The notes under the pieces are model-generated. The model ran no database searches, was not told the DNA's origin, and saw nothing but the letters and a program-made list of their open reading frames with translations. From the NCBI RefSeq assembly GCF_039769035.1, contig NZ_JBDMZG010000023.1, forward strand, positions 4,429 through 68,428: DNA of 64,000 nucleotides, given 5' to 3'. The translations under genes were made by a program, and so were the position numbers. Shown here in pieces: positions 14,716 to 62,127 of this stretch; the stretch's first letter is position 1, and each line of letters begins with the position of its first letter. This stretch comes from Pacificibacter sp. (lineage in GTDB: Bacteria; Pseudomonadota; Alphaproteobacteria; Rhodobacterales; Rhodobacteraceae).

Positions 14716-14751
14716 TGCTGTATGTCAATACATATGTGCTGACATACAGCA
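14716..14751. promoter_or_regulatory. 12-bp perfect inverted repeat overlapping the promoter of the amino-acid SBP
   Basis: TGCTGTATGTCA-N12-TGACATACAGCA; TTGACT at 14691-14696 and CATGCT 17 bp later. Confidence 0.6.
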
Positions 14752-37406: not shown

Positions 37407-37709
37407 AGACAAAGCAATTGATCTAACGCGCCTAAAGCGAATACTGCATCGCCTAGCGCTTCGGCGCAGCCAGTGCTAAAAACACCTGACCTCAATGAGT
37501 TAAGTTTGCAGATCAAGACAGGGGATGTCGCAATGTTCTTAACTTGGTAAGATACTGTATTGAAGATATACTGTCCTAAAAGCCAGCCCTGCTATGTATT
37601 CATTTAGTGCCCCAAAAGTTTGCATTGACTTTGCGGGTCTTATGGCGGGCGTAAATGTAAACGTCATAGATGCTATGAAGGTGGCTATGTGGCCAAGAAA
37701 CGAGCGACA

Positions 37710-38399
37710 ATGAGAGTCACGTACAAAGAAGTCAAAGCGGATATCTTGGCTAAGATTGTCAGGGGCGATTGGGGGCCGGGCGAATTGGTTCCCAACGAAA
37801 TGGATCTGACGGAAACCTACAATTGCGCCCGCGCCACAGTGAACCGCGCGATGCGCGAGCTTGCGGATGAAGGCATTATTGAGAGACGCCGCAAAGCAGG
37901 CACGCGCGTGCGCGAGACCCGCATTCTTCAGGCCAAATTTGATATTCCAGTGTTGCGCAACGAAATCGAAGCGCTCAACGCGGAATACAGATATTCATTG
38001 GTGTCTAGTAGCGTTGAAAACGCGCCTGATTGGCTGCGAGCGCGCCTGCAATTGCCCAAGGCAGCAGATGTACTGCATCTCATTTGCATGCACTATGCAG
38101 ACGGAAACCCATATCAATACGAAGATCGCTGGATCAATCTTGATGCGTTGCCGCAAGCGAGAGAGATTGATTTTTCCAAACTCGGTCCAAATGATTGGTT
38201 GATGAGTGAAATACCATACTCAGAAGCTGAAATTAGCTTTTCTGCAGCATTGGCAGACAAAGAGATGACTGAGTTTTTGGAATGTGCTGTAGGGGATCCG
38301 ATTTTCATCGTCGAGAGATCTACGTGGCACGCTGAGCAAGCGATGACCTATGTTAGGTTGTCGCACAAGCCTGGGCACCGGATGACAACGCGCTATTGA
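37710..38399 (+). CDS. hutC: Histidine utilization repressor (GntR/UTRA)
   Basis: wHTH PNEMDL..CARATVNRAMREL..RRRKAGTRV plus UTRA YEDRWINL; convergent with hutU. Confidence 0.85.
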   Translation: MRVTYKEVKADILAKIVRGDWGPGELVPNEMDLTETYNCARATVNRAMRELADEGIIERRRKAGTRVRETRILQAKFDIPVLRNEIEALNAEYRYSLVSSSVENAPDWLRARLQLPKAADVLHLICMHYADGNPYQYEDRWINLDALPQAREIDFSKLGPNDWLMSEIPYSEAEISFSAALADKEMTEFLECAVGDPIFIVERSTWHAEQAMTYVRLSHKPGHRMTTRY

Positions 38400-38473: not shown

Positions 38474-40144
38474 TTACCCAAGAATACCGGGCAGATTTAG
38501 ATCATGCGCGCGGGCACATGCTTTGGCGTCATCATAGCCCGCATCGGCGTGACGCATGACACCTGTGGCCGGATCGTTCCACAAGACACGTTCAATGCGG
38601 CGATCCGCATCCTCAGAGCCGTCACAGCAAATCACCATGCCGGAGTGTTGCGAAAAGCCTATGCCAACGCCGCCGCCGTGGTGTAATGACACCCAAGTCG
38701 CGCCTGAAGCTGTGTTTAGAAGCGCATTCAAAAGCGGCCAGTCCGATACAGCATCTGAGCCGTCCATCATCGCCTCTGTTTCGCGATTGGGGGAGGCGAC
38801 CGATCCTGAGTCGAGGTGGTCGCGGCCAATCACGATCGGCGCGCTGAGCTCGCCAGTGCGAACCATTTCGTTGAAGGCAAGACCTAGCTTGTGGCGAATG
38901 CCCAAACCAACCCAGCAGATGCGTGCAGGCAAGCCTTGGAATTCGATACGTTCGCGAGCCATATCGAGCCAAGTGTGCAGATGCTTGTCCTCGGAAAGAA
39001 TTTCCTTAACTTTGGCGTCTGTTTTGTAGATGTCCTCTGGATCACCAGACAGCGCCGCCCAGCGGAACGGACCGATGCCGCGGCAAAAGAGCGGACGGAT
39101 ATATGCTGGAACGAAGCCTGGGAAATCAAAGGCGTTTTCAAGACCTTCTTCAAGCGCAACCTGGCGAATGTTGTTGCCGTAATCAAACGTAGGAATGCCC
39201 AGTTTCTGGAAATCGATCATCGCTGCTACATGCGCTTTCATCGAGGCGCGGGCGGCAGCTTCTACAGCCTTCGGATCGCTTTCGCGTTTCTCTTTCCATT
39301 GCGCCATGCTCCAACCTTGGGGCAGGTAACCGTTGATTGGGTCATGCGCAGAGGTTTGATCTGTGACCATATCTGGACGCACGCCGCGCTTTGCGATTTG
39401 CGCAAAGACATCTGCCGCATTGCCCAAAAGGCCAACAGATTTTGCTTCACCAGCGGCGGTCCATTTTTCGATCAACGCCAAAGCTTCGTCCAACGTATCG
39501 GCGCGCTCATCTACATAACGGGTGCGCAGGCGGAAATCGATGCTGTCTGGGTTACATTCAACAGCCAAGCAGCATGCGCCTGCCATAACTGCCGCCAAAG
39601 GTTGCGCGCCGCCCATGCCGCCAAGGCCGCCTGTGAGGACCCATTTGCCCGTCAGATCGCCGCCGTAATGTTGGCGACCAGCCTCGACGAAGGTTTCATA
39701 CGTCCCCTGCACGATGCCTTGGGAGCCGATGTAAATCCAAGAGCCGGCCGTCATCTGGCCGTACATGGCCAAGCCCTTTTTATCGAGCTCATTGAAGTGA
39801 TCCCAATTTGCCCAATGCGGTACGAGGTTGGAGTTAGCGATCAAAACGCGTGGGGCGTCTTTGTGGGTTTGGAACACGCCGACAGGCTTTCCAGACTGCA
39901 CCATCAACGTTTGATCTTCTTCAAGGTTTTTCAGTGCCTCAACGATGAGATCAAAATCTTTCCATGTGCGCGCAGCGCGCCCGATACCGCCGTACACCAC
40001 CAGTTCATGGGGGTTTTCGGCTACATCAGGATGGAGGTTGTTCATCAACATCCGCATCGGCGCTTCGGTCAGCCAGCTTTTGGCAGTGATGTCAGAGCCC
40101 GTCGCGGGGAAAATATCACGGGTGTTCTTGTGGGGATCGCTCAT
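38474..40144 (-). CDS. hutU: Urocanate hydratase
   Basis: [62 protein letters not shown] and [18 protein letters not shown]. Confidence 0.97.
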
Positions 40145-40941
40145 GATGTGCCTTTCGGGAAAGGGGCCAATTCGGCCAGTTTGGTCAAAATTGATTGGAG
40201 GTGAGGACGCAGCTTTGCGGCTTTTTCCTCGTCATAAGTCCAAGGGCTTGTCTCAGATTGCAGATACATGCTTTGCGCCAATTCCATTTGGATCGCGTGA
40301 AAACCTTCTGCAGGGCGGCCATAAGCGCGGGTCGTCCAGCCGCCTTTAAAGCGGCCATTGGTGACTGAGGAATAACCTTCTGCAGCGGCGCAAATGTCTT
40401 GGGTGATTTGCGCGACCTTCGGATCGCATGTGGTGCCTAGATTCGTCCCGATGTTGAAGTCGGGCAGGGTGCCTTCGAACAGAAAAGGGATGTCCGATCG
40501 GATCGAATGGCAGTCATACAGAATGACAAAACCATGTAGGCTCTTAACACGCTCAAGTTCGGCCACAAGGGCGGCGTGATAGGGCGCATGAAAAGCCAGA
40601 CGACGTGTTTCATTAGTCGCAGCATCGGGTGCCTTGTCCCAAATATCATGGCCGTCAAAGTCAGTGAGCGGCACCAGACCTGTCGTGTTTTGGCCAGGGT
40701 AGAGCGACACACCAGAGGGATCACGATTGGCGTCCACAACATAGCGGTGAAACGTTGCGCGCACAGTCGTGACGTCGGGCAAGAGGCCCTCATAGAGCGT
40801 GTGAATGTGCCAATCCGTATCATCCAATCCGCGCCCGCGGTCGTTGAGATCCGCCAAAACATCCTCTGGTACATAAGTTCCTGTGTGTGGCAGGCCCAAA
40901 ACGATCGGGCTATCACCTTGTGTGATTTCTACGGGTGTCAT
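40141..40941 (-). CDS. hutG: N-formylglutamate deformylase
   Basis: [40 protein letters not shown] and HAIQMELAQ. Confidence 0.93.
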
Positions 40942-41033
40942 GGTGTCATCTCCTGCGTGTCGCTGGCTGCTGTGGTAATGTCCTCGGATGCGATCATTGT
41001 TGCCGCCTCAGACTTAAAAGGCTGCGGGCTCAC
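40938..41033 (-). pseudogene. 31-codon ORF at the hutH position, probable in-frame deletion scar of hutH
   Basis: GTG overlaps the hutI stop (GTGA) behind GGAGG; TGA overlaps the hutG start (ATGA); translation [31 protein letters not shown]. Confidence 0.55.
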
Positions 41034-42241
41034 AATTTGCCTCCGAAAATACGCGCGTGAAGTGGGTTGAAGCCAATCCGATAAGAGAGTTCGGCTGGGT
41101 GTTTGATGTCCCAAACGGCCATGTCAGCACGCATGCCAACAGCAAGTGTGCCCGTGTCCGTTAGGCCCAAAGCACGCGCTGCGTTTTGCGTCACGCCGCG
41201 CAGGGTTTCTTCGGGTGTCATACGAAACAGAGTGCACCCCATGTTGAGGGTGAGCAGCAGCGAATTTAGGGGGGACGATCCGGGGTTGATGTCTGTCGCG
41301 AGCGCCATCGGCACCTTGTGTTGGCGCAGCGCATCGATTGGCGGCGCTTGTGTTTCGCGCAAGGTGTAGAACGCACCGGGCAGGATGACAGCAACCGTGC
41401 CCGCATCCTTCATGGCGACGACGCCGTCCTCGTCCAGATATTCGATATGGTCGGCAGACATAGCGCCATAGCGTGCAGCCAGTTTTGCGCCGCCGAGGTT
41501 GGAGAGCTGTTCAGCATGCAGCTTGACCGGTAAGCCCAGCTCCTGAGCCACATCAAACACGCGCGCGATTTGTTCAGGCTGAAAAGCGATGCCTTCGCAA
41601 AACCCGTCCACAGCGTCGACCAAGCCTTCGGCATGGGCTGCGCGTAGGGCAGGGATGCAGACATTATCGATGTACGCATCATCTCGACCGGCATATTCAG
41701 CTGGTGTTGCATGCGCGCCAAGGAAGGTCGTTTTCACACGTAAGGGGCGGTGTTTCGGGATCGCGCGGGCGACACGCAGCATGCGCAGCTCGGTCTCCAG
41801 ATCCAAGCCATAACCAGATTTCACTTCAATACATGTGACGCCTTCTGCAATCAAAACATCCACTCGGCGCAAGGCATCGCGAAGCAGGTCTTCTTCGGTT
41901 GCAGCGCGTGTGGCATTGACCGTCGATACAATCCCGCCGCCTGCGCGTGCGACCTCTTCATAGCTGGCGCCACTCAGTCGCATCTCGAACTCTGCTGCGC
42001 GGTCGCCGCCATGTACAATATGCGTATGGCAATCGATCAGCCCAGGGGTGACGAGGCGACCACCAAGGTTGGTTTCAGGCAGAGCTTTATACTGTTCAGG
42101 GATCTTGGACTGAGGTCCGATCCAATCGATAACCCCGTCCACGACTGGCACTGCTGCATCTTCGATCAGTCCGTATGGCGCGTCTGTTTCACCCATTGTC
42201 ACAAGATTCAGGTGGGAGAAGAGTCTGTTGTCTTTCGGCAT
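41030..42241 (-). CDS. hutI: Imidazolonepropionase
   Basis: [41 protein letters not shown] and [10 protein letters not shown]. Confidence 0.96.
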
Positions 42242-42268
42242 TATCAATCCGGTTTGGCTAAGAATATA

Positions 42269-42312
42269 CATTTAAGGTATGCAAAGATATGCTTTATGTC
42301 TATACATAAAGC
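42269..42312. promoter_or_regulatory. HutC operator box 1 within a duplicated 40-bp promoter block
   Basis: GCTTTATGT-CTAT-ACATAAAGC palindrome with core TATGTCTATACATA upstream of hutI. Confidence 0.8.
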
Positions 42313-42445: not shown

Positions 42446-43420
42446 ATGAATTACCGCCAAGCCGTGCTCTTCATGCCAGGGGTGCTTATTTGTTCAATCG
42501 TCGCGGCCGCCTCGCGATTTTTATCAGATCACTACAGTGCTCCCACGATGTTATTTGCGCTGCTCATTGGGTTGAGTCTGCATTTCTTGGTGGATGACCA
42601 GAAAGTGGCGCCGGGGATAAGGTTCGCGGCGGCGGATTTGTTGAAATTGGGGGTGGCATTGTTGGGGTTGCGAATCACGTTGGCTGATATTGGCGATTTA
42701 GGTGTGCAAACGATTGGTCTCGTTATTGGCGGCGTAATCTTTTCCATCTCTATCGGGATTGCGATCACGTTATTGCTTGGAAAAAATATCAGGTTCGGCG
42801 TTTTGTCTGGCGGAGCTGTTGGTATCTGCGGGGCGTCTGCGGCCTTGGCCATTTCAGCAGTGTTGCCCACGTCTGACACCAGAGAACGCGATACCGCTTT
42901 TATCGTAGTTGCCGTCACAACACTCTCTACAGTAGCAATGGTTCTCTACCCGATTTTGGGAAAACGTTTGGGATTAGACGACCAGCACATTGGGATCCTT
43001 TTAGGGCTAACAATTCACGATGTGGCGCAGGTTGTCGGTGCCGGGTTTTCGGTTTCAGAAGAAACGGGCAACATCGCAACCCTCATTAAGCTGTTTCGTG
43101 TCTCCATGCTTGTCCCAGTCATAATTGTGATCTCATTCGCGTTCCGCAAGCAAAACGCGCAATGCAATCGCAGCGGTGTTCCCTGGTTCGTTCATGGCTT
43201 CGCAATCGCTATTGTGATCAACAGTCTAGGTGTTCTTCCTGAGACGATCAGGGTGTTGCTAGCGGCGGTTTCATCATGGATGTTAGTGATTGGGATTGTT
43301 GGGATCGGGATAAAAACCTCCCTAAAAAGCTTGGGCCATGTCGGGGGTGCAGCGCTGGTTATTGTCTGCCTGGAAACCCTCCTGCTTTTTGCGGTGGCGG
43401 CTGTAATCCTTGTGCTGTGA
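42446..43420 (+). CDS. YeiH / putative sulfate exporter (TauZ/SuyZ-like) membrane protein
   Basis: LKLGVALLGLRI, GAVGICGASAALA, GLTIHDVAQVVGAG, IKLFRVSML and GIGIKTSL. Confidence 0.88.
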   Translation: MNYRQAVLFMPGVLICSIVAAASRFLSDHYSAPTMLFALLIGLSLHFLVDDQKVAPGIRFAAADLLKLGVALLGLRITLADIGDLGVQTIGLVIGGVIFSISIGIAITLLLGKNIRFGVLSGGAVGICGASAALAISAVLPTSDTRERDTAFIVVAVTTLSTVAMVLYPILGKRLGLDDQHIGILLGLTIHDVAQVVGAGFSVSEETGNIATLIKLFRVSMLVPVIIVISFAFRKQNAQCNRSGVPWFVHGFAIAIVINSLGVLPETIRVLLAAVSSWMLVIGIVGIGIKTSLKSLGHVGGAALVIVCLETLLLFAVAAVILVL

Positions 43421-43626
43421 CAGTTCAATGCAACTGTCATCGTATCGCTAAGCGATCTAGAGGCTTCTAAAATTTATCTTACGCAGGCCATGCATACTTG
43501 GAGTTTTAGGACTTAGGTCACCGCATCTTCCGTGATTTCACGGAAGGCCGTGGATGTCATTTTGCGGCGCTCAAAACGGCAAAGAAACAAGAACAGGTTG
43601 ACGGTTCAATATAACGGAGAAAACCG

Positions 43627-44211
43627 ATGCAAATTCTGAAATCAAATGCCTTGATTGATGTGCCATGGAAAAACGGCGGCGGGATCACGCGCAACATCGC
43701 GAAAGGTTTGCGTGAGGGCAAGATTGCTTGGACCATTAGCCGCGCTGATGTCGCCGAGGCTGGCCCTTTTTCTGATTTTGCAGGCATGATACGTGTGCTG
43801 ACTGTAGTGTCTGGCGGGACGATGGTTTTGGACACACCCAAAACGTCCCTCACGGCGGTGCTTTTTTCGCCAGTTCGCTTTGATGGGGCGCTGAAGGTGT
43901 TTTCGCGTTTGGAAGATGGCCCGATTACTGATCTGAATCTTATGTTTGATCCGAGCTTTTGTGACGGGGATGTCGTGGTCCACAAAGGCCCGTGCGATCT
44001 CAAAGCCACGTGTCCGGAGCACGGAGTGTTGGCGTTTCATGGGCTTGCCGGAGGCCCCTGCGTCGACGGAACGGCAATCAGCTCCGCGGATACGGCGTTT
44101 GTCACACAGCCCAACGCGATGCTTCAGTTGAAAGAAGGAGAGGCATTGCTTGAGCTACGCTTAAGCTATCTGGATCAAGACAATGCCATCAAGCTGTGCA
44201 TTGCAGATTGA
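43627..44211 (+). CDS. hutD: HutD-family protein
   Basis: PWKNGGGITRNI, ISRADV..GPFSDFAG..R and TDLNLM. Confidence 0.9.
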   Translation: MQILKSNALIDVPWKNGGGITRNIAKGLREGKIAWTISRADVAEAGPFSDFAGMIRVLTVVSGGTMVLDTPKTSLTAVLFSPVRFDGALKVFSRLEDGPITDLNLMFDPSFCDGDVVVHKGPCDLKATCPEHGVLAFHGLAGGPCVDGTAISSADTAFVTQPNAMLQLKEGEALLELRLSYLDQDNAIKLCIAD

Positions 44212-44353: not shown

Positions 44354-46456
44354 CTAAGTTGGATCCGCTTCCGCTGCGGTTTTAATGACCGGCTCCATGG
44401 ACGCTAAGGCCTCGGGGCTTAGGTGACATTTGACTTGATGCCCATCCGCAAGGTTCTGCACGTCTGGAACTTGGGTCTCACAGAGATTGCCTGCCACCGA
44501 CGATTTCCAACGGCACCGCGTTTGGAACGGGCAACCAGAAGGTGGGTTCATGGCGGAAGGAATGTCGCCTTCAAGGACGATTTGTTGCTTCTGGATCGTG
44601 GTGTCCGCAATCGGAACCGCCGACAACAATGCTTCGGTGTAGGGGTGGTACGGAGGCGAGAACACCTGATCAGCTGTGCCAAGCTCCACGACGTGACCGA
44701 GATACATCACCAGCACTCGATCACTGAGGTAGCGCACAATGGAAAGATCGTGAGAGATAAACAGCAACGTGGTGCGGTTCTTACGTTGAATCTCCATCAG
44801 AAGATCTGTCACTGCGGCCTGCACAGACACATCAAGGGCAGACACAGGTTCATCCGCGACGACGATCTTGGCGTCGCCGGCAAACGCACGCGCGATCCCT
44901 ACGCGTTGCTTTTGACCGCCTGAGAGCTGCCGCGGGGTGCGTTCGGCGAAAGCGCGAGGCAGTTTGACCAAATCCAGAAGTTCAAGCATACGATTGCGGC
45001 GCTCTGCATCATTGCTGCCAATCTTGAAAATTTCCAACGCGCGGATGATCTGGCGCCCAATGGTCATGGAGGGATTGAGCGTGTCGAAGGGGTTTTGAAA
45101 AACCATTTGAACACTGGAAACGGCCGTTGTGCCACGTTCGGCAATCGGCGTGTCTTGGATCTCGGTGTCGAGCAGTTGGATCTTACCATCGGTGGCTGTT
45201 TCAAGGCCCAACAGCATTTTAGCGAGCGTGGACTTGCCGCAGCCAGACTCTCCAACAATGGCGAGGGTTTCTGCTTCGTGAGCACTGAAGCTGATGTCCT
45301 CGTTGGCCTTCACAACGGCGACATCGCTTTTGTTTTTGAACATCGAGCTTGAGGCGACTTCATAGTATTTTTGAAGGTTTTGCAGATCAAGGATCTTTGC
45401 ACCGCGATCGGTTTTCTCCGTTTGTCGCGCCACTTCTGGCTCGGCCAGCCAATCGATCTCTTCATAGCGGCGGCATCGTGTCTCGTGAAGGCCGTTGCCA
45501 TCGACGGATGCCATTTCAATAGCCCCTTGGTCGCATTGGCCTTTAACAGCGTAAGAACAGCGTGGACCAAAATTACACCCTATCGGGCGTTCGTGCGGCA
45601 AGGGAAAGTTGCCGGGAATTGCCATAAGCGGACGGCTGTTTTTGTCCGCACCGGGCAGGGGGATCGAGCGGAAGAGAGCTTGCGTGTAGGGATGGCGCAT
45701 TTTGTCAAAGACGTCTTTGATTGACCCGCGCTCAATCGCTTCGCCGGAGTACATCACGCAGATGCGGTCGCAGGTTTCCAGAACCAAACCAAGGTTGTGC
45801 GAGATAAACAGGATGGATGTCCCGTATTTCTTACCAAGGTCTTTCACCAATTCAATCACCGCTGCCTCAACCGTTACATCCAGCGCAGTGGTGGGCTCAT
45901 CTAGGATGAGCAACTTGGGCTTTGACATCAATGCCATGGCAATCACGATACGTTGTTGTTGCCCGCCTGAGAGCTGGTGAGGATAGCTGTTCAAAACGCG
46001 TTTTGGGTCTGGAAGTTTGACGTCTGTGACGACCTCCAAGGCACGCGCATAAGCGTCATTCGCGCACATGTTCTCGTGCAGCATGGGCACTTCCATCAAC
46101 TGCTTCCCGATTTTCATCGCAGGGTTTAGCGAGGCCATGGGCTCTTGGTAAATCATGGCGATTTCTTTGCCGCGGATGCGGCGCAGTTCTTCTGCGGGCA
46201 TTGTTGTCAGATCTTTGCCTTTGAACTTGATCGTTCCTCCAACAATTTCACCGTTCTTGCCAAGATCGCGCATGATCCCGAGCGCGACTGTAGATTTCCC
46301 GCAGCCAGATTCACCCACAAGGCCCAGTGCTTCGCCCGGCATGATTTTCGCGGAGAAGTCCATCACGGCGGGAATTTCCATTAAGCGCGTCATGAAGCTG
46401 ATCGACAGTTTGTCGATTTCCAAGATAGGGCCGGCATAGTCTGTTTGATCGGACAT
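44354..46456 (-). CDS. Peptide/opine/nickel ABC transporter, fused double ATPase
   Basis: Two GESGCGKST Walker A motifs, two LSGGQ motifs and two C-terminal GCxFxxRC oligo-HPY domains. Confidence 0.93.
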   Translation of the reverse strand: MSDQTDYAGPILEIDKLSISFMTRLMEIPAVMDFSAKIMPGEALGLVGESGCGKSTVALGIMRDLGKNGEIVGGTIKFKGKDLTTMPAEELRRIRGKEIAMIYQEPMASLNPAMKIGKQLMEVPMLHENMCANDAYARALEVVTDVKLPDPKRVLNSYPHQLSGGQQQRIVIAMALMSKPKLLILDEPTTALDVTVEAAVIELVKDLGKKYGTSILFISHNLGLVLETCDRICVMYSGEAIERGSIKDVFDKMRHPYTQALFRSIPLPGADKNSRPLMAIPGNFPLPHERPIGCNFGPRCSYAVKGQCDQGAIEMASVDGNGLHETRCRRYEEIDWLAEPEVARQTEKTDRGAKILDLQNLQKYYEVASSSMFKNKSDVAVVKANEDISFSAHEAETLAIVGESGCGKSTLAKMLLGLETATDGKIQLLDTEIQDTPIAERGTTAVSSVQMVFQNPFDTLNPSMTIGRQIIRALEIFKIGSNDAERRNRMLELLDLVKLPRAFAERTPRQLSGGQKQRVGIARAFAGDAKIVVADEPVSALDVSVQAAVTDLLMEIQRKNRTTLLFISHDLSIVRYLSDRVLVMYLGHVVELGTADQVFSPPYHPYTEALLSAVPIADTTIQKQQIVLEGDIPSAMNPPSGCPFQTRCRWKSSVAGNLCETQVPDVQNLADGHQVKCHLSPEALASMEPVIKTAAEADPT

Positions 46457-46508
46457 ATTTTCTTCTTTCGTTCGCTGGATCTGGCGGTTTGACACCGCCG
46501 GATGTGAC

Positions 46509-47699
46509 TTAGTCGCGCAGGCTTTCTTCGCGCAGACCGTCGGCAAGAAGGTTGAGGCCAAGCACGAGGCTCAAAAGAGCGATGGCTGGCGGTAGGGCGG
46601 GATGAAGGTAGATTGACAAGAGTTTGCGGCCCTCATTGATCGTTGAGCCCCAATCCGGACTCTCGGGCGGAAGGCCCAAACCGAAGAAGCCAAGTGTCCC
46701 CAGAAGGATGGTCGTGTAGCCAATGCGCAGGCAGAAATCCACGATGAGCGGGCCGCGCACGTTGGGCAAAATTTCCCACAACATGATGTACCAATGCGAT
46801 TCACCGCGTGTTTGCGCCGCGGCAACGTAGTCGCGGGTTTTAACATCGAGGGTAAGCCCCCGCACGATCCGAAAGACGGTTGGCGCATTTACGAAAACCA
46901 CGGCAACAAAAACAACAAGAATGCCGCCAGGAACGTCGAAGCCGTCTAGCAAAGCTGGCACGAGATCTATGGCTCCGCCTTTTTCGGAAATCAAAGACAG
47001 GTAAATCCAGCCCATGCTCCCGAGCACCACGATCAAAAGCGGAGTGCGCACGCTGGGCCGAGTGTGAAAGCGCGAGTTCAGCAAAACGCCCACAAAAATC
47101 AGCGGGAATATGAAGAGGACGGCTGCCATATAATTGGGAATGCCAGATTCTACGATCTCTGGTGTGACCAAGAGGTAGAACAGGAGAATAACAGGAAAGG
47201 CTAAGATCAGGTTGGCTGCAAAAGAGAGGGCTGTGTCCAAATACCCGCCAAAATAGCCCGCAGGCAATCCCAGTGTGATGCCAACCATAAAGGCAAAAAG
47301 AGTTGAGAGAGGTGCGATTTGCACGACAACGAAAGCGCCTTTGACCATTCGGCTGAACACATCACGCGCCAAGTTGTCACCACCAAGAAGATAGTAGCCA
47401 GAATATTTGCTCGAGTCTGGCACCGGTGTTCCCGGAGCTTTGTTTTTGAGGCCCGAAATTTGGGTCAGTGGATCATGCGTGATGATCATATCCATCGCGC
47501 CAAACAGGCCGGTGAAGATCCAAAACATAACGAGGAAAAATCCTACCATGCCAACCTTGCTGTCAAAGAGCTTACCGTAGAGGCCAAGCTTGCGTTTGTA
47601 GGTGATGGACAGCACAAACACAGCGGCCAAAGCAATCCAAACCGGCATAAACTGCAATAAGATGCGCACGATGATTGCGCCCCAGCTCAGAGTTTCCAT
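46509..47699 (-). CDS. Peptide/opine ABC permease (DppC-like)
   Basis: LGGDNLARDVFSR, DYVAAAQTRGE, ILPNVRGP and LGFFGLG..PDWG. Confidence 0.9.
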   Translation of the reverse strand: METLSWGAIIVRILLQFMPVWIALAAVFVLSITYKRKLGLYGKLFDSKVGMVGFFLVMFWIFTGLFGAMDMIITHDPLTQISGLKNKAPGTPVPDSSKYSGYYLLGGDNLARDVFSRMVKGAFVVVQIAPLSTLFAFMVGITLGLPAGYFGGYLDTALSFAANLILAFPVILLFYLLVTPEIVESGIPNYMAAVLFIFPLIFVGVLLNSRFHTRPSVRTPLLIVVLGSMGWIYLSLISEKGGAIDLVPALLDGFDVPGGILVVFVAVVFVNAPTVFRIVRGLTLDVKTRDYVAAAQTRGESHWYIMLWEILPNVRGPLIVDFCLRIGYTTILLGTLGFFGLGLPPESPDWGSTINEGRKLLSIYLHPALPPAIALLSLVLGLNLLADGLREESLRD

Positions 47700-47713
47700 G
47701 AGTCAATTCCCTC

Positions 47714-48760
47714 TTAGGATACGCGAATGCGCGGGTTGAGATAGACATATCCAATGTCGCTGATGAGCTGCGTAAGCAGGACAACCACAACGGATACCAC
47801 GGACACTCCCAGCAGAAGCGAGATGTCATTATTGCCAGCGGCTTGCACCAGTGCCCAGCCAAAACCTTTGTAGTTGAACAGGGTCTCGACGATGACCACG
47901 CCGTTCAACAGCCATGGGATTTGCAGCATAATAACGGTGAAAGGGGCGATCAGAGCGTTTCGCAGCGCATGGCGAATAACAATGTCGCGGAACTTCACGC
48001 CCTTGAGACGCGCCGTGCGGATATATTGCGCGGTCATGACCTCAGCCATCGAAGCGCGCGTCATCCGTGCGATATAGCCCATGCCATACAACGCGATTGT
48101 GACAACTGGTAAAAAGAAATTCCGGAAAGTCGCGTCGTCCATTGCTTTCGTGGCGGTGCCAGTGAACCATTTCAATCCAACGGCCGACGAGGCGAAGACA
48201 GCAATGAGAATGACGCCTGACACGTATTCAGGTGTGGCCGTTGTGGTGATGGCGATCGAGGACAACGTGCGATCGGTTTTTGAGCCCTCTTTCATACCAG
48301 CAATGACACCAAGGATCAGCGCAGATGGGATCATCACCACAAGCACCCAGAACATCAATTTGCCTGTGAGAGCGAGGCGGGTGCCGATGATGGTGCTGAC
48401 GTCATCGCGGAAAACCGTAGACGTCCCCCAATCCCCCTGCAAAACACCGCAGTACTTTGGGGCATTTGCGGGATCGATACTACGTTTGATACAGGTCCCT
48501 GTTACGTCACCAGCTTCATCCGAAATTGTGAAGCCGGGAACGACGCCGAGCCATTCGCCGTATTTCGTGAGCATCGGGCGATCATAACCACGCTTGTGCA
48601 GCCATGATGTCACCTCAGCGTCAGCCATGCGGCTGTTGCCTTGCGTTTTAGCGAGTTTTTCAAGGTTGGGCGGCAGGTTTGTCAGCGCAAAGACTATGAA
48701 GGTGAGGCAAAGTGCTGTCAAAATCATAAACGCAAGGCGTCGCAGTAAAAAGAGTACCAT
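47714..48760 (-). CDS. Peptide/opine ABC permease (DppB-like)
   Basis: GDWGTS, ARMTRASMAEV..YIRTARLKG, HALRNAL and VETLFNYKGFG. Confidence 0.9.
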   Translation of the reverse strand: MVLFLLRRLAFMILTALCLTFIVFALTNLPPNLEKLAKTQGNSRMADAEVTSWLHKRGYDRPMLTKYGEWLGVVPGFTISDEAGDVTGTCIKRSIDPANAPKYCGVLQGDWGTSTVFRDDVSTIIGTRLALTGKLMFWVLVVMIPSALILGVIAGMKEGSKTDRTLSSIAITTTATPEYVSGVILIAVFASSAVGLKWFTGTATKAMDDATFRNFFLPVVTIALYGMGYIARMTRASMAEVMTAQYIRTARLKGVKFRDIVIRHALRNALIAPFTVIMLQIPWLLNGVVIVETLFNYKGFGWALVQAAGNNDISLLLGVSVVSVVVVLLTQLISDIGYVYLNPRIRVS

Positions 48761-48848
48761 TTTTGTCCTCAGTTGGCTGGCCACTACAGGCGGCAAAAGG
48801 CTTGGCGCTGAATGTGGCACGCCTCACGCGGATCGGATGTAGGTGGAA

Positions 48849-48874
48849 AAGCAGCTGACCTAAGTCAGCTGCTT
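48849..48874 (-). terminator. Stem-loop after the SBP gene
   Basis: AAGCAGCTGAC-CTAA-GTCAGCTGCTT perfect 11-bp stem. Confidence 0.65.
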
Positions 48875-48884
48875 GTATTTTGAA

Positions 48885-50531
48885 TTAGGCCTCAAACGAG
48901 ATTTCGCTGGGTCTAATTTCATGTGTTGGGTGCATGTCAGCGTTCACCACATTTTGCGCAGAGTGACGGTAGAGCAAGCGCCAGTACGGCTGAATTGTCA
49001 CGGCTTCATCTTGCATAATCCGTTGCAATTTTTCCATCAATTCACGGCGCGTGTCCGCATCCGCAATGGAGAGAGCTTGGTCCAGCGTTTCGTCAAACTC
49101 TTTGTTTGCGAAGCCCGTTTCGTTCCAAGCAACTCCAGAACGATACGCTAGATTGTACACTTCTACCCCCAAGGGTCGGTGGCCCCATGTTGTGGTTGAG
49201 AATGGGTACTTGGTCCAATCATTCCAGAACGTGGACCCTGGCAAAAGCTTGCGTGAAACGTTGAGGCCTGCATCTCGCAACTGGCCTGCCACTGCATCAG
49301 CGGTGTCTTTGGAGAAGCCGCCGTCTGTTGAAACCAGTTCGAATTCCACATCGGCCAAACCAGATTCTTGTGCGAGCGCCAAGGCCGCGTCCGGGTCGTA
49401 GCTCAGTGGTGGGAGCTCTGCATAATCGGGGTGAATGGGGCTGACATGATGGTTTTCGGCAGCAATACCGCGGTCTGCGTAGCCCAGCTCCAGTGTGACA
49501 GCATTGCTGCTCGCCATCTGCAAAGCCTTGCGCGCGCGCACATCTTCGAAAATCTTTTTGCCATCGACTTCGGCGAGTTGGTTGGGGCGCACAACAATCG
49601 TACTGGCAGTGGTTGCCGATGTCTGCTTCCAACCAAGGCTGTCCATGATGTCGACAAATTCGCCGGTGGTTTCATACACCAGATCGATTTCTTCGCTTTC
49701 AACAGCTGCAAGAAGAGATGCGGGCTCTGTGCCGTAATCGATGTACTCGACACCGTCCAGTGACACTTCACCGCCCCACCACGTGTGGTTTTCCGCTTTC
49801 ACGATGACGGCCTTCACACCAATTTCGATGCTTTCCAAACGGAAGGGGCCCGTGCCTATTGGATTTACTGTCGGATCACCTTCGTGGGATGAATGCGTCA
49901 CCGCAGCTGGGTAGTCAGCAAAGGACGCAATGATCGAAATGTCAGGCTTTGAGAGGGAGAGTTTAACAGTGTGTTCATCAACAATCTCGATCGCATCGGC
50001 ACGTATCACGCCAGATTCCGCATCGGTGAGGGATGACATCCGCGCTGCCATTGAGTTGCCTTCGACCGAACTGTCTGCCCACATAGAGATATTGCGTACG
50101 ACATCCTGCGCTGTAAAAGCATCTCCGTTATGCCATGTGACGCCTTTGCGAACATGCAATGTGTATTCAGTTGCATCCGCGTTGGCTTCCCACGCTTCAA
50201 GCAGCATAGGGCTGAAGCTGCCGTCACGTTCGTAGCTTACAAGGTATTCCAACCAACCGCGTGTCAGGTTGCCCAGCTCTGGCCAGTCAAACGTGCGCGG
50301 GTCTTTTGGTGATTTGATTGGCATGCCGACACGCAGTGTGCCACTAGATGCATCTGACGCAGCTTGAGCTGGTTGAACGAGCCCCATAGCGCCATAGGCA
50401 ACCGAGGCAGTGACACCCAGCGCAGTCGCACGACTTAGAAATTCGCGGCGGCTGAGCTTGCCTGCGGTGTGTTCTTGTAGATACATATGCGCTGCATTGG
50501 GCAGCTCTGGCTTTGCTGTTTTCTGTGTCAC
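48885..50531 (-). CDS. Tat-exported family-5 solute-binding protein
   Basis: GTG start behind GGAGA; SRREFL twin-arginine motif and AQA cleavage site; [24 protein letters not shown] and GTGPF. Confidence 0.9.
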
Positions 50532-50811
50532 GTTACGTTCTCCATGTTGTGGTTCTTCTGCTTCAGGTTTTCCTGTTAAGCGGCGTTTTGCTATGAAACT
50601 TTGGATGTCTGCGCGCCTGGGCGTGATCGCTACAGTCGTTGACTGTGATTGCTCTCGGAACGGCAATTCGGTGTAAGCCGTCACGCAGTCCCTTAGCGGC
50701 GCTCAATGAGGCATCAAGCGCTGTGAAAAAAACGATATAGATCGAGCATTGGCCGAAGAAAAACGGCGCTTTCATCTCACTGGGTTGCGTTGTCATGGCG
50801 CATCATCATTC

Positions 50812-50831
50812 CATTATGTCTGCACATAATG
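50812..50831. promoter_or_regulatory. HutC operator box 2, in the SBP / lyase-1 divergent region
   Basis: CATTATGT-CTGC-ACATAATG; core TATGTCTGCACATA is 12/14 identical to boxes 1 and 3. Confidence 0.7.
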
Positions 50832-51099
50832 AGACTTAAGCAATTAACGACCTGTCAATAAATGGTTGAAAGCACACAGAACGGAAAATCTTGATTTAAT
50901 TCACAACAAGTCAAGTTAACCATTTGAAATATAAGTATTAATAATATTGCGAATGCGGAGGGTATGCTCATTTTTTGAGCTGATTTTGAGAGTTGTCACG
51001 CAAAAACGCAATTTTGCTCGCATTTAGCACATGTTGAACCCCGCATTTCCCACATAAGAATTGCTGAGTTTTATACTTCTCAGGATGACCGGAGCGACG

Positions 51100-52569
51100 A
51101 TGCAATACGATAAGCAAACCCCTACAACTGAATTGACAGGTGATATGTTGACCTGCGAAGTCCTCGTGGCGATCTCGAAGGGACAAATGCATGCGAGCTT
51201 ATCTGAAGCAGCAACACAGCGTATAGCCGAGTCTCGCAAGCATGTGGATAAGATTGTCAATGAAAGGCGTCCTGCATACGGTATTACAACGGGAGTTGGA
51301 TCTCAAAAAGATCATCAAATCGATATGGAGGCTGTCGCCTTGTACAATCGGCGTTTGGTGAAAGGGCATGCGACGCGTGTGCCGGGGCCATCTTACGACC
51401 CTTCGATTGTGCGCGGCGCATTGGTCGTCCTCTTGAATGGGTTCGCCAAAGGTGGATCTGGTGTCACACCGGAGCTGACAAAAATTTTGAAACAGAAAAT
51501 TTCCGCGAGCGAGATGCCAACAATTGATGCAAGCGGATCGGTCAGTGCATCCGACCTTGTGCCTCTGGCTCAAACCGCCGACTGGTTGCTATCAAGCGAA
51601 GACGCCGAGTCAGCAGGACTGCCCAAGGCAAAAGAAACGCTCTCTTTGATCAACTGGAATGCATTTACTCTGTCCGAAGGGGCGCAGCACATAACGGAAC
51701 TGCTGCGTTTGCTGGACGTTTATACTCTTGCGTTGGCGACAACATACGAAGGCTTTCGAAGCAATCTTGATGCCATTGCGGAGCCCGTGAATGCGCTTCA
51801 CCGGCGAGGCGGACAGTCTAAAGTTGCGGCCGATCTGCGGGCTCACCTTAAGGGCAGTGCGCTTTGGCAATCTGGTGCCTCGCGGTTCCTCCAAGATCCT
51901 CTAAGCTTTCGGACGGCCTCACAGATCCATGGGGCTACATTTGAGTGCTTTAAGTCGCTAGAATCCGTTTGGAACAGCGAGTTGAACACCGTCAATGACA
52001 ACCCTATTATTGATCGCGCTGATGGTCGGGCATATTCACATGGCAACATGGACACCACGCGGTTTACGCTGGCGCTGGACACTGCGCGGCAAGCCTTGGC
52101 TAAGGTGGTGGATGTGTCTGGTGAGCGTATTCACAAACAACAATGGCCCGTTTTTTCCGGTCTGCCTATTGGCCTTTCTGAAGAGGATTCCGCGACTGGG
52201 GGCGTTCAGTTTTTGAACCTTGGGCACATCTCTTCTTCCCTGATCACATCGGTGAAAATTTGGGCCACACCACACTTGCTAAACTCAGTTGGACAGGTGG
52301 CTGATGGGGTTGAAGACACTGCAAGCCATGCCATGCACGCCGTACATGATTTGAAAAGGCAATTGGATGCGAGCTGGAAGATTGCCGCTTTAGAAATGCT
52401 GGTGGCTGTTTGGGCCATTCACCGCCGTAAATTGCCTTTGGATGAGTTGGGAAAAGATGTGCGAGAGGTGTATCAAACGCTTCTCCCTTTGCTGCCCATC
52501 GGTCATGAAGGTGATGCAGTTTTCGATCTGGCGGAGGTCATAGCTGCGGTTAAGGCAATCAGGGTTTAG
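51100..52569 (+). CDS. HAL/PAL-superfamily lyase lacking the MIO motif (lyase 1)
   Basis: YGITTGVG, NGFAKGGSGV, QDPLSFR..QIHGA, NTVNDNP, HGN and VED; GSVSASDL at 51535-51558 instead of GSVGASGDL. Confidence 0.85.
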   Translation: MQYDKQTPTTELTGDMLTCEVLVAISKGQMHASLSEAATQRIAESRKHVDKIVNERRPAYGITTGVGSQKDHQIDMEAVALYNRRLVKGHATRVPGPSYDPSIVRGALVVLLNGFAKGGSGVTPELTKILKQKISASEMPTIDASGSVSASDLVPLAQTADWLLSSEDAESAGLPKAKETLSLINWNAFTLSEGAQHITELLRLLDVYTLALATTYEGFRSNLDAIAEPVNALHRRGGQSKVAADLRAHLKGSALWQSGASRFLQDPLSFRTASQIHGATFECFKSLESVWNSELNTVNDNPIIDRADGRAYSHGNMDTTRFTLALDTARQALAKVVDVSGERIHKQQWPVFSGLPIGLSEEDSATGGVQFLNLGHISSSLITSVKIWATPHLLNSVGQVADGVEDTASHAMHAVHDLKRQLDASWKIAALEMLVAVWAIHRRKLPLDELGKDVREVYQTLLPLLPIGHEGDAVFDLAEVIAAVKAIRV

Positions 52570-53473
52570 GGGCCGCTTGTTTTAGCAGCTGTTGAATGTG
52601 ATCCAAATATTGCGACTTGCGCGGCTTAACTTCGCTTAGGCTCCGTGCGTTTTGCGACACATAATATCCGTACGGCAAGCTGAGTTGAGTGCTGGCGAGC
52701 GCAGTGACTTGGCCTGCCGTTATGGCCTTTTGCGCTAAGCTGAGCGGGGCAAGCATGATACCAGCGCCTCGGATCGCCAGTTCCAGCCCTATGTTTGTCC
52801 CAGCAACGCGCAGACCTGCACGCGCATCGGAGATTTTACGGTTTCCAAAATTTCGAAACCAAGTCGCCCAAGTCGGATATGACGTATATGTTTCGCCCCA
52901 ATCTACATGAATGAGCAGCCTGTCGGGGATGTCCAAAAGATCCGGCGGCAGGTGCTGTGCCAAAGGGGGGGCACAGATGGGGGCCACGGTGTCTTGGAAA
53001 AGCAATTGGCTGGTGACGTTTGCGGAGTTGTGGTCTTGAAACGAGACTCTCAAGTCGATCTCGTGTTGGTCAAAGACAAACGGATCTGAGTCTATTTGAA
53101 GCGACACGCCCACCTGAGGGTTGGAGTGCCGAAACTTGGCGACAGCGGGAACAACCAAACCTTCGGCAAGCGATTGAATTGTGCTGATCACAATTCTGGA
53201 GCGCATATCCTGCTCAAGAAATCGCTCCGTGATTTCAGAAAGATCTGACAGGGCACGGGCCACGTGGGGGTATAGCATCTGTCCCGCATCCGTCGTCGTT
53301 AGGAAGTTGTTGCCGCGCAGAAATAATTGCTTTCCAAGGAACTCTTCGGCTTTGCTGACTTGAAGACTGACGGCTGCGGATGAGACGCCGAGTTCCGCAC
53401 CGGCAGCCGTGAATGTTCCGCATCTGACCGTGGCTTCGAAGGCTTTAATCGCGTTGAGAGGGGGTAATTTCAT
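52559..53473 (-). CDS. LysR regulator, GcvA/AmpR type
   Basis: MKLPPLNAIKAFEA..FTAAGAELGVSSAAVSLQV; divergent from the OCD gene. Confidence 0.9.
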   Translation of the reverse strand: MKLPPLNAIKAFEATVRCGTFTAAGAELGVSSAAVSLQVSKAEEFLGKQLFLRGNNFLTTTDAGQMLYPHVARALSDLSEITERFLEQDMRSRIVISTIQSLAEGLVVPAVAKFRHSNPQVGVSLQIDSDPFVFDQHEIDLRVSFQDHNSANVTSQLLFQDTVAPICAPPLAQHLPPDLLDIPDRLLIHVDWGETYTSYPTWATWFRNFGNRKISDARAGLRVAGTNIGLELAIRGAGIMLAPLSLAQKAITAGQVTALASTQLSLPYGYYVSQNARSLSEVKPRKSQYLDHIQQLLKQAAPKP

Positions 53474-53578
53474 AGGGCCAGTATTGGCATAAGAAAAACT
53501 TGTGCAATGCCCAATTTTTCTAGAATCACGTTTTTCTTGAAAGCGCGTAATCTGTTCCAAACTGAATTGGAGGAAACG

Positions 53579-60498: not shown

Positions 60499-60713
60499 GC
60501 GCCGTGTGAAAGTCAATGAGTGCTCCCTAATTGCTACGCAGCAATTCGTTGAGTTGAAATATAGGTCTAGAAAAGAGCTGCGCTATTAAACGACGTGCCG
60601 CACAGTTTCAAAACAGGTGAATGTCCGACTTCATGTTGTGACTTCACATGGTTGAGTGCGCAGTAGCACAGATTTTCGCGCTGATTTAAAACTTCACTAT
60701 GGCAAAAAAATTC

Positions 60714-60753
60714 CATTTAAGGTATGTGCTGATATGAGTTATGTCTATACATA
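60714..60753. promoter_or_regulatory. HutC operator box 3 / second copy of the 40-bp block
   Basis: CATTTAAGGTATGtgctGATATGagTTATGTCTATACATA; 34/40 identical to 42269-42308; upstream of hutF. Confidence 0.8.
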
Positions 60754-60768
60754 TAAACAGAGGTTGAA

Positions 60769-62127
60769 ATGATTTTTGCAAAGCAAGCACTGCTTTCAAG
60801 TGGATGGGCGTCAGGTGTTCGCCTCGATGTGACGCAGGGGACGATCACAAAAATTGAAACGCAGCAGCAGGCTCACGCAGGTGATGTGACAGTCGACACC
60901 CTCTTGCCTGCCTTGGCAAATCTACACAGTCACAGCTTTCAGCGGGCTATGGCAGGAATGACCGAATACCGCATGGCTGGTAAGGACAGTTTCTGGACGT
61001 GGCGCGATTTGATGTACAAGTTCACCTCAACGATATCAGCTGAACAAGTCGAGGCAATTGCAGCCTTTGTGTTCTTGGAAATGCAAGAGGCGGGCTATGC
61101 CAGCGTTGGTGAGTTTCACTACCTTCACCACCAACCGGGCGGCATGCCTTATGATGATCTTGGCGAACTGTCGTCCCGCATCGCATCCGCGGCAGATGTG
61201 ACCGGCATTGGCCTAACACATCTCCCAGTTCTCTATACATATGGCGGGGCTGGGCAGGTGCCGCTCAAAGCAGGACAGGCGCGTTTCGGAAACTCTGCCG
61301 ATCAGTTTAATGCATTGGTCGATAAAGCAAAAAACGCGGTGTCTTCCCTCGCAGATGATTGCCGCGTCGGCATCGCACCGCACTCATTGCGCGCGATATC
61401 GCCCGATGACCTCAAAGCCGTCTTGGCCGCTCGCTCCAACGGGCCAATCCATATTCATATTGCCGAACAACCCAAAGAAGTCGCTGATATTCAAGCTTGG
61501 CTCGGCGCACGTCCCGTTGAGTGGTTGCTGGCAAACACGGACGCCAATGAAGATTGGTGCCTGATCCATGCCACCCATATGACAGAAGTCGAAACAAAGA
61601 ACATGGCCCAGTCTGGCGTGGTTGCTGGCCTGTGCCCTGTCACCGAGGCCAATCTGGGAGATGGCCCGTTCAATGGACAGGCATATGTGAACCATGGTGG
61701 AGCCTTTGGTGTCGGATCTGACTCCAATGTTCTGATCTCATTGACGGAAGAGCTGCGTACTTTGGAATATTCGCAACGTCTGCGTGATGTTGCGCGAAAC
61801 ATCATGGTCAAAGGTGAGGGCTCCGTTGGGGCGAAACTCTATTGTGGTGCAGCAAAGGGCGGCGCGCAGGCGCTGAGCCGTCAAGCGGGCGACATTTCCG
61901 TTGGAAACCTCGCAGATCTTGTAGCCATCGACAGCACGGCGCCGGCACTCTGCGCGCTACGCCAAGATCAAATCCTCGATGGTCTTGTGTTCGCAGCGAA
62001 GGATACAGTCGTGACAGATGTTTGGTCCGCTGGCAGACACGCGGTGCAAACTGGCCGCCATGTGAAACGGGATGAGATCACTGCAGCCTACACCTCAGCA
62101 ATGCACGCTTTGGTGGCCTCGCTCTGA
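60769..62127 (+). CDS. hutF: Formimidoylglutamate deiminase
   Basis: NLHSHSFQRAMAGMTE, SFWTWR, GEFHYLHH, HIHIAEQPKEV, CPVTEANLGDG and GSDSNV. Confidence 0.96.
   Translation: MIFAKQALLSSGWASGVRLDVTQGTITKIETQQQAHAGDVTVDTLLPALANLHSHSFQRAMAGMTEYRMAGKDSFWTWRDLMYKFTSTISAEQVEAIAAFVFLEMQEAGYASVGEFHYLHHQPGGMPYDDLGELSSRIASAADVTGIGLTHLPVLYTYGGAGQVPLKAGQARFGNSADQFNALVDKAKNAVSSLADDCRVGIAPHSLRAISPDDLKAVLAARSNGPIHIHIAEQPKEVADIQAWLGARPVEWLLANTDANEDWCLIHATHMTEVETKNMAQSGVVAGLCPVTEANLGDGPFNGQAYVNHGGAFGVGSDSNVLISLTEELRTLEYSQRLRDVARNIMVKGEGSVGAKLYCGAAKGGAQALSRQAGDISVGNLADLVAIDSTAPALCALRQDQILDGLVFAAKDTVVTDVWSAGRHAVQTGRHVKRDEITAAYTSAMHALVASL

Follow-up and report, generated by a model that had tools for sequence, protein, structure and literature searches.

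In a 64-kb window of a Pacificibacter sp. genome (the whole stretch of DNA analysed, 64,000 nucleotides of contig NZ_JBDMZG010000023.1 in assembly GCF_039769035.1), a 568-bp spacer separates two divergent genes. One encodes the substrate-binding protein (SBP) of a family-5 ATP-binding cassette (ABC) importer, and the other encodes lyase 1, a histidase homologue without the 4-methylideneimidazol-5-one (MIO) triad. The spacer contains a palindrome, box 3, that resembles the operators of the neighboring hut genes (Table 1). We compared sequence, motif statistics, conservation, gene neighborhoods and active-site residues, and from these we predict HutC binding, the promoter or promoters under its control, the substrate of lyase 1 and the ligand of the importer.

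Table 1. Features of the locus, in window coordinates (L numbers are our labels for the loci used in comparisons)
Feature	Position	Strand	Basis or remark
Family-5 SBP, 548 aa, twin-arginine signal (SRREFL...AQAA)	48885..50531	-	PF00496 at 1.6e-55
Permease 1 (BPD_transp_1), likely start ATG 48760	47714..48760	-	domain search
Permease 2 (BPD_transp_1)	46509..47699	-	domain search
Fused double ATPase (2x ABC_tran + 2x oligo_HPY), likely start GTG 46495	44354..46495	-	713 aa as in L154
Lyase 1, cytoplasmic MIO-less histidase homologue	51100..52569	+	GSVSAS-DLVPL, QDPLSFR, His376
Box 3, predicted HutC operator	50812..50831	.	palindrome CATTATGT-CTGC-ACATAATG
Box 1 (TATGTCTATACATA)	42295..42308	.	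24 nt before hutI, 138 nt before yeiH-like gene
Box 2 (TATGTCTATACATA)	60740..60753	.	16 nt before hutF; degenerate copy at 60723
Two overlapping perfect boxes	14721..14746	.	27 nt before polar amino-acid ABC binding-protein gene (14773)
hutC	37689..38399	+	TIGR02018 275 bits vs 220 cut-off; GntR (PF00392) and UTRA (PF07702) domains
TTGACA, candidate -35 for leftward transcription	50853..50858	-	inferred; TTGAC in L138/L139, TTGAGA in L154
Strongly conserved block, lyase 1 side of box 3	50860..50912	.	window vs L154; four-sequence alignment
Probable relic, 5' end of GlxA-type AraC gene (MTTQPSEMKAPFFFGQ...)	50750..50796	-	spacer alignment with L138/L139
hutU-hutG-hutI operon	38474..42271	-	no hutH between hutI and hutG
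hutF	60769..62127	+	profile match
YeiH-family gene and hutD	42446-44211	+	gene map
LysR	52559-53560	-	gene map
OCD-family gene and second lyase	53507-56115	+	gene map
Desaturase-like gene and PhnD-like gene	56240-58047	+	gene map
Weakly XRE-like gene	58219	+	DUF5753 below cut-off
MFS	59122-60516	-	gene map

Box 3, CATTATGTCTGCACATAATG on the + strand, is a perfect inverted repeat of two 8-nt arms around a 4-nt center and is the sole match to this sequence in the window when up to three mismatches are allowed. Compared with TATGTCTATACATA, the core found at 42295 and 60740, its 14-nt core TATGTCTGCACATA has 2 differences in 14 positions, and these are central. The 12/14 match to a HutC-type box claimed in the original prediction was thus reproduced, as was its location roughly midway between the divergent starts; the box center lies ~290 nt from the SBP start (GTG 50531) and ~278 nt from the lyase 1 start (ATG 51100). 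Sites of the form TATGT-N4-ACATA occur five times in the 3.43-Mb assembly. All five lie within the window (14721, 14733, 42295, 50815 and 60740), and all adjoin hut-related genes. Five order-1 Markov genomes contained 0, 0, 1, 1 and 1 such sites, i.e., ~0.6 expected against 5 observed. Box 3 is therefore one of five sites, the tandem pair at 14721/14733 having been overlooked when three boxes were counted earlier.

Several lines of evidence connect box 3 with HutC. The genome carries hutC as a single copy and encodes one HutC-subfamily protein. The outer arms of box 3 are identical to the arms of the local hut boxes, with its departures confined to the center (CTGC), which varies among the other local sites too (CTAT, CAAT and GCTG). 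The motif ATTATG-N6-CATAAT was found, with 0–2 mismatches, in the hutF/hutI spacer of five HutC-bearing alphaproteobacterial loci that had been fetched for other purposes (L093, L147, L137, L131 and L132) and before hutI in L097 and L154. The last of these is a sister contig (Logan SRR28780247) with the same island at 84–96% protein identity. From the box towards the SBP gene (50592–50809), L154 and the window are ~50–60% identical with several indels, and from the box towards lyase 1 they are 85–95% identical; the box core, ATTATGTCTGCACATAA, is identical at 17 of 17 positions. In L155 and L156, whose SBP is 65% identical to that in the window, two perfect-arm copies flank the orthologous transporter, one (ATTATGACTATACATAAT) 31 nt before the SBP start and the other (ATTATGCTTGGACATAAT) before the permease genes. 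No site at one mismatch or fewer was present in 80 hut-unlinked orthologous transporter loci (~1 Mb). Since the arms match the hut boxes, the core is conserved in L154 and the motif recurs in related hut loci, box 3 is very probably an operator for HutC.

The palindrome might instead serve some regulator besides HutC, or be an inactive relic that came in with the island. Its CTGC center departs from the GT-N-TA-N-AC and TGTA-N2-TACA cores, and the island has LysR and XRE-like regulators of its own. In addition, two related loci share the left arm of the box (CCATTATGT in L138 and CCATTAAGT in L139) and have three mismatches in the other arm, so that they keep the left half-site only, whereas the window has the full palindrome. 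We consider this explanation improbable, however, as the center of site 14733 is equally atypical, and the identity of the arms to hut operator arms, the L154 core kept beside a diverged flank and the lone HutC-subfamily protein all speak for a HutC operator.

An experimentally characterized counterpart is HutC at Phut in Pseudomonas fluorescens SBW25 and P. aeruginosa PAO1 (PMC12977541), where, as predicted here, a GntR/UTRA repressor is paired with a palindromic operator in hut promoters. In both systems, urocanate is the expected inducer, and each genome has several sites, spread over genes for catabolism and uptake. Relative to the experimentally defined Pseudomonas site, TGTA-N2-TACA (PMC12977541), the TGTC-TG-CACA of box 3 agrees with this Pseudomonas-derived consensus at 6 of 8 positions, the central TA being TG; boxes 1 and 2 agree at 7 of 8 and site 14733 at 6 of 8. 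Unlike in Phut, the arms here are longer (ATTATGT...ACATAAT), the center of box 3 is CTGC, and the site lies 270–290 nt from both genes. The targets of the predicted binding would also differ: in place of hutH or a histidine permease, they would be a family-5 importer and an MIO-less lyase.

The SBP gene begins at a GTG preceded by GGAG, and its orthologues begin at the same position. As originally predicted, the N-region before the twin arginines is long: 27 residues precede SRREFL, and the motif leads into a hydrophobic stretch that ends in an A-x-A site. All elements of a twin-arginine translocation (Tat) signal (S/T-R-R-x-F-L, a hydrophobic stretch and A-x-A) are thus present, and the SBP is predicted to be exported by this route. 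An HPAA-x-MYA-x-E-like stretch in the N-region is common to the orthologues, including L150. Across hundreds of orthologues (L001–L080), residues 1–32 (50436–50531, - strand) follow the pattern M-x8-10-HPAA-x-MYA-x-E-x3-GKLSRREFL; such conservation is unusual for the n-region of a signal peptide and makes the long N-region a feature of the whole family.

The importer has the composition of the PepT family (Dpp/Opp/Nik/Cnt/Gsi): one operon encodes an SBP_bac_5 protein, a pair of BPD_transp_1 permeases and two ATPase domains, each with an oligo_HPY tail. The predicted fusion of the ATPases was confirmed, as two ABC_tran and two oligo_HPY domains lie in one chain, an arrangement also seen in GsiA and YejF. 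Unlike the known PepT-family importers, this one has an SBP that reaches no equivalog cut-off, carries a Tat signal whose long N-region is conserved, and has betaine-type lyases as neighbors. Against the NCBIfam equivalogs DppA, OppA, NikA, CntA and GsiB, the SBP scored far below every cut-off (e.g., NikA, 90 bits against 393), its best score being 98 bits against a cut-off of 650 for Opp4A. Its PDB matches were weak (at most 5e-18), and for the nearest relatives of solved structure the ligands are peptides, agropinic acid, nickel-histidine or glutathione.

Lyase 1 is not a histidase, a point that the original prediction missed. It lacks the Ala-Ser-Gly (MIO) triad, its GSVSAS-DL being one residue short of GSVGASGDL, and it scores 212 bits against the 539-bit cut-off of the hutH model (TIGR01225). 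Its best PDB match is an ergothionase (6s7j, 9e-37), ahead of every histidase (best 2e-29). Work in Shewanella has described a class of trimethylammonia-lyases that have the PF00221 fold without Ala-Ser-Gly and retain a catalytic Tyr, carboxylate ligands (Gln, Arg and Asn) and imidazole ligands (His and Glu); an MIO-less lyase requires a quaternary ammonium leaving group (bioRxiv 10.1101/2025.08.13.670108, 10.64898/2026.04.22.720169). Lyase 1 combines this fold, without the triad, with the Tyr and ligand residues of the class (Tyr60, His90, Gln265, Arg271, Asn301 and Glu405), which are invariant in 5 orthologues. No signal peptide was found in lyase 1, suggesting that its substrate must be imported.

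Within this class, lyase 1 resembles the ergothionases (Treponema denticola 6s7j; SO_3057) in lacking MIO and in sharing QDPLSFR with them. In contrast, the ergothionase Lys384, which is essential for thiolate binding, is replaced in lyase 1 by His376. The hercynine lyase Swoo_3913 of Shewanella woodyi (bioRxiv 10.1101/2025.08.13.670108) is likewise a PF00221 protein without Ala-Ser-Gly, with a Tyr base and carboxylate and imidazole ligands. It also has no Lys at the Lys384 position, where it carries the neutral Asn439, so that lyase 1 has neither of the two characterized residues; urocanate is the expected product of both Swoo_3913 and lyase 1. As far as the two can be compared by description, Swoo_3913 is periplasmic, paired with a urocanate reductase for respiration and equipped with Asn, whereas lyase 1 is cytoplasmic, tied to catabolic hut genes and equipped with His.

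The genomic context of the lyase 1 family (47–78% identity) points to urocanate as its product. The lyase gene directly follows hutU in 16 of 28 genome loci, has hut genes within a few kb in two more, and follows hutU on three further contigs (L137, L140 and L147). The 16 hutU-linked loci, from organisms including Nisaea, Taklimakanibacter, Acidimicrobiales and Rhodobacteraceae, also encode a canonical, MIO-bearing HutH at another point of the cluster whenever the locus extends that far, and each shows one urocanase gene. The sole hutU of the present genome likewise encodes a canonical urocanase, which scores below the thiourocanate hydratase cut-offs. Since the family is tied to hutU and the single urocanase is canonical, the substrate is expected to be hercynine-like and the product urocanate. 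We therefore regard it as likely that lyase 1 is a histidine-betaine trimethylammonia-lyase yielding urocanate, and word this no more firmly because SO_3299 shows that residue-based calls can miss.

The genome itself appears to depend on such an activity. No canonical (MIO-bearing) HutH was found in the whole assembly, where the two PF00221 genes, lyase 1 and the gene at 54586–56115, both lack the MIO triad. In this genome, hutI and hutG are 88 nt apart (40942–41029), whereas same-genus relatives with hut genes have the order hutI-hutH-hutG. Judging from these gene contents, canonical hutH is lost, and no evident source of urocanate is left except lyase 1.

Two further contexts of lyase 1 were seen among its relatives. 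In one, it lies in an operon with a PhnD-like gene (L096, L114, L130, L133, L141–L143 and L145), often accompanied by a desaturase-like or TPR gene and by a regulator gene of the LysR or XRE-like type; in the other, it lies behind genes for a HalD-like 2-oxoglutarate (2OG) oxygenase and an M24 peptidase-like protein (L118 and L130). The desaturase-like gene of L133 seems to be the first in an operon for a family-5 ABC system whose ATPase is fused. In the Nisaea-type hut operons (L093, L094, L095, L140 and L147), a ferric-reductase-like transmembrane gene (PF01794) follows the lyase 1 homologue.

We next consider the link between importer and lyase. Orthologues of the transporter (55–62% identity) were present on more than 580 stretches of genome contigs, the best 80 of which were examined; these come mostly from Rhodobacterales and are 53–61% identical in the SBP and 64–80% in the permeases and ATPase. 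Closer SBP relatives, 65–95% identical, stand beside MIO-less lyases or an operon partner of lyase 1 in four gene orders. L154 has a divergent SBP/lyase 1 pair like that of the window (92–95% protein identity). In L150, a gene for a GlxA-type AraC regulator (379 aa) is divergent from lyase 1 and followed by the SBP gene (84%); this contig overlaps L139, from the same organism, on which lyase 1 is 76% identical over its full length. In L157, a gene for an MIO-less, Lys-bearing lyase lies 80 bp upstream of that for the SBP (68%). In L155 and L156, the transporter is followed by a LysR gene and a gene for a HalD-like oxygenase 56% identical to the first gene product of the HalD-M24-lyase 1 operons. 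In a tree of 133 SBPs, the lyase-linked sequences fell into one clade of eight (support 0.965), which differs from the roseobacter orthologues at 37 otherwise conserved positions (e.g., D448T, N354R, F216H and Q451H); these changes would fit a changed ligand. Since four differing gene orders keep both partners together, the importer and lyase 1 probably share a function, a conclusion that we hold with more assurance than the assignment of the lyase substrate.

How box 3 came to lie in mid-spacer is suggested by relatives in which the region is occupied. Divergent from lyase 1 in L138 (lyase 78% identical) and L139 is a gene for a GlxA-family AraC regulator, whose homologues are named GlxA family or glycine betaine-responsive activator. 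Regulators of this kind, resembling the GlxA/GbdR-type activators of betaine catabolism, are encoded between lyase 1 and the SBP gene in L138, L139 and L150 (intact in L150), whereas the present genome keeps ~15 codons. The regulator ATG lies 16 nt from the box in L138 and L139, a geometry like that of boxes 1 and 2; the window retains this ATG and the ~15 recognizable codons (MTTQPSEMKAPFFFGQ compared with MTSRSDKMNIPFSLEQ), after which similarity is lost, and in L154 the relic ATG is deleted too. No remnant of the gene body was found at 50532–50750, no GlxA homologue elsewhere in the genome, and no relative of the regulator in the species genomes searched. The mid-spacer position of the box can thus be understood if the box was set relative to the now-deleted regulator gene. 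On this comparison, the ancestral module would have comprised lyase 1 divergent from an activator gene followed by the importer genes, with the activator lost in the present lineage.

The remainder of the spacer is unevenly conserved. The best -10 for the minus-strand TTGACA, TCTCAT at an 18-nt spacing, is weak, and the start would fall inside the box. The block at 50860–50912 is a probable protein-binding or promoter region, and conservation between the window and L154 is 95% over the ~60 nt that immediately precede the SBP start. The divergence on the SBP side would suit a long leader transcribed from a promoter near the box and, equally well, a separate promoter in the conserved 60 nt. A leader RNA or riboswitch between the box and lyase 1 was considered and rejected: there was no Rfam hit with an E-value of 1 or lower, four homologous spacers folded together gave a consensus of -2.5 kcal/mol, and the single-sequence z-score was -1.0. 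Footprinting within the genus was precluded since 24 same-genus genomes contained lyase 1 in none and a single 37% SBP relative.

These features raise an alternative in which the box regulates the lyase 1 side only, or originally the deleted GlxA-type gene, and the importer has its own promoter and an unrelated ligand, having come to lie beside the box merely through the deletion. The 16-nt distance between the box and the relic start, the conservation of the lyase-side but not the SBP-side spacer, the possible promoter in the conserved 60 nt and the absence of hut linkage for most transporter orthologues would all suit it. On the other hand, the conserved 60 nt show no clear promoter, the SBP subclade is linked to lyases in four arrangements, and in L155 and L156 one copy of the motif immediately precedes the SBP gene and another the permease genes. 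We therefore think separate control of the importer unlikely.

Together, these results lead us to propose that box 3 is the operator of the single HutC in a control region shared by the divergent pair within the 18-kb island. The Tat-exported SBP and its ABC importer would take up a histidine-derived betaine, most likely hercynine (N-alpha-trimethylhistidine) or possibly an ergothioneine-type relative. In the cytoplasm, lyase 1 would split off trimethylamine and leave urocanate, which would both enter the HutU-HutI-HutF-HutG pathway and release HutC from its boxes. The importer, lyase and hut genes would in this way be induced together, as hutH and the histidine permease are in ordinary hut systems, and with the GlxA-type activator gene deleted, HutC would be the visible regulator.

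The placement of the importer and lyase 1 in the histidine regulon, as originally predicted, is thus retained with the added weight of the motif and neighborhood comparisons; the accompanying label of a peptide/opine importer is not, since lyase 1 belongs to a class that needs a quaternary ammonium leaving group. The chemistry of MIO-less lyases, the attachment of the family to hutU and the importer–lyase coupling argue for a histidine betaine as the imported ligand, an assignment that we hold to be evenly balanced. Our confidence in the entire chain, from operator and coupling to lyase and ligand, is likewise no better than halfway.

The ligand had been predicted to be a larger histidine conjugate. 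A histidine derivative other than histidine itself is still favored, whereas "larger conjugate" is not, as the tie to hutU favors a hercynine-like substrate. It is possible that a larger conjugate is first trimmed and then lysed. Family-5 binding proteins typically take peptide-sized ligands, and the ligands of the nearest solved SBP relatives would fit an importer of carnosine/anserine peptides, histopine, a staphylopine-like metallophore or a compound of the hercynyl-cysteine type, trimmed before it reaches lyase 1. Processing of this kind is hinted at by the M24 peptidase-like and 2OG oxygenase genes that precede lyase 1 in L118 and L130, and by the desaturase-like gene and PhnD-like pair that precede it in L141 and L133. 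However, the leaving-group requirement takes plain peptides and opines out as direct substrates, no peptidase was found in the island, and without hutH the cell could not turn peptide-derived histidine into urocanate. A larger conjugate is accordingly an unlikely ligand, if slightly less so than separate control of the importer.

The importer could also supply the inducer itself, its ligand being urocanate or another imidazole acid and not the substrate of the lyase. Uptake of urocanate is a common function in HutC regulons, this genome has no histidine-to-urocanate route, and L155 shows boxes and the transporter with no lyase in view. Nevertheless, the recurring adjacency to lyases favors a substrate over a product, the neighboring gene in L156 corresponds to the first gene of known lyase 1 operons, and we know of no family-5 protein that binds acids as small as urocanate. 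Inducer uptake seems to us the least probable of the explanations considered, and a histidine betaine remains the preferred ligand.

A number of observations weigh against the proposal as a whole. To our knowledge, no family-5 binding protein binds a betaine. Box 3 lies 270–290 nt from both start codons, compared with 16–27 nt for the other four boxes, and since the SBP-side spacer evolves freely, control of the importer from the box is an inference. Of the sigma-70-like promoters in a scan, only TTGTCA-16-CATTAT on the + strand overlaps the box, and it was set aside, its -35 being deleted in L154. The His of lyase 1 contrasts with the Asn of the characterized hercynine lyase, and SO_3299, which was expected to use hercynine, uses N-pi-methyl-hercynine (Shewanella preprint). 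Most of the more than 580 transporter orthologues lie beside a different AraC gene and housekeeping genes; among the best 80, the operon follows a gene for a 276-aa AraC protein and miaA, pyrH, frr, uppS and cdsA, and the surrounding 6 kb contain neither hut genes nor a lyase. P0360 (L161), a member of the SBP clade that was checked blind, has no lyase, hut gene or box nearby. Conversely, other lyase 1 loci have different transport genes or none (TRAP in L097 and LysE in L116). Finally, the SBP of L157 is paired with a Lys-bearing ergothionase-like lyase, so the ligand could be a thio-betaine.

All parts of the system are of known kinds (a HutC operator, a PepT-type importer and a trimethylammonia-lyase), and their combination is new, as are the loss of hutH and the apparent takeover by HutC from a dedicated activator. 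Although hercynine and ergothioneine occur widely, their uptake and breakdown by bacteria are only now being worked out. The literature that we searched contained a hercynine lyase in a 2025 preprint and EgtUV as the sole ergothioneine ABC importer. EgtUV is not known to be a cluster-C/family-5 system. What its preprint does describe is a bacterial ergothioneine ABC transporter (bioRxiv 10.1101/2022.05.02.490363), which resembles the importer proposed here in being an ABC importer for a histidine betaine. We tentatively suggest, with a little less than even confidence, that the Tat-exported SBP subclade, with its fused-ATPase ABC system, forms a new importer class for hercynine and/or ergothioneine that was captured by the HutC regulon after the loss of hutH and the GlxA-type activator. 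If this is true, a family-5 betaine importer would extend the ligands known for a very large family of transporters and explain genes annotated as "peptide/nickel transporter" and "histidine ammonia-lyase", and the histidine pathway would have been re-purposed to run on trimethylhistidine. The locus would also be a natural case of regulator exchange, with the activator gene gone, a repressor operator in place and the usual first enzyme of the pathway lost.

The borders of the island are marked by a 37-nt block, TTAAGGTATG...TTATGTCTATACATA, which includes the HutC box and is repeated at 42272–42308 and 60717–60753 (31 of 37 positions identical). These blocks lie at both ends of the 18.4-kb accessory island, which seems to have inserted into one hutI/hutF spacer, like that of Nisaea, and divided it. 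Inside it, the second lyase (54586–56115, + strand) has GSIGAA-DL and a Lys at the ergothionase Lys384 position (FAPVMKT). Its gene follows an OCD/mu-crystallin-family gene (53507–54589, + strand), which is divergent from a GcvA-like LysR gene (52559–53560, - strand), and a 54% homologue of this lyase directly precedes the SBP gene in L157. A gene for a putative sulfate/sulfite exporter of the YeiH family (42446–43420, + strand) and hutD stand directly behind box 1, an arrangement that would fit an island also handling a sulfur-bearing histidine derivative.

Among the relatives of the SBP, the orphan gene for P0360 follows a LysR gene that is divergent from a sulfatase gene, a layout that recalls choline-sulfate loci and may indicate another quaternary-amine substrate. 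Upstream of the roseobacter orthologues (L004, L009, L016, L028, L032 and others), tandem GATGTCG(C/T)TTT repeats ~22 nt apart lie ~170–215 nt before the SBP start and are probably binding sites of the adjacent 276-aa AraC protein. We rejected this protein as a counterpart of the GlxA-type regulator of L138/L150, with which it has only the helix-turn-helix (HTH) in common. The window shows only weak resemblance to the repeats, at -206/-184 of the SBP gene, overlapping an equally weak similarity to the GlxA gene. Behind the two overlapping boxes at 14721–14746 lie a gene for an AapJ-like binding protein and two permease genes, which probably constitute the regulon's resident histidine/amino-acid importer, now without a histidase.

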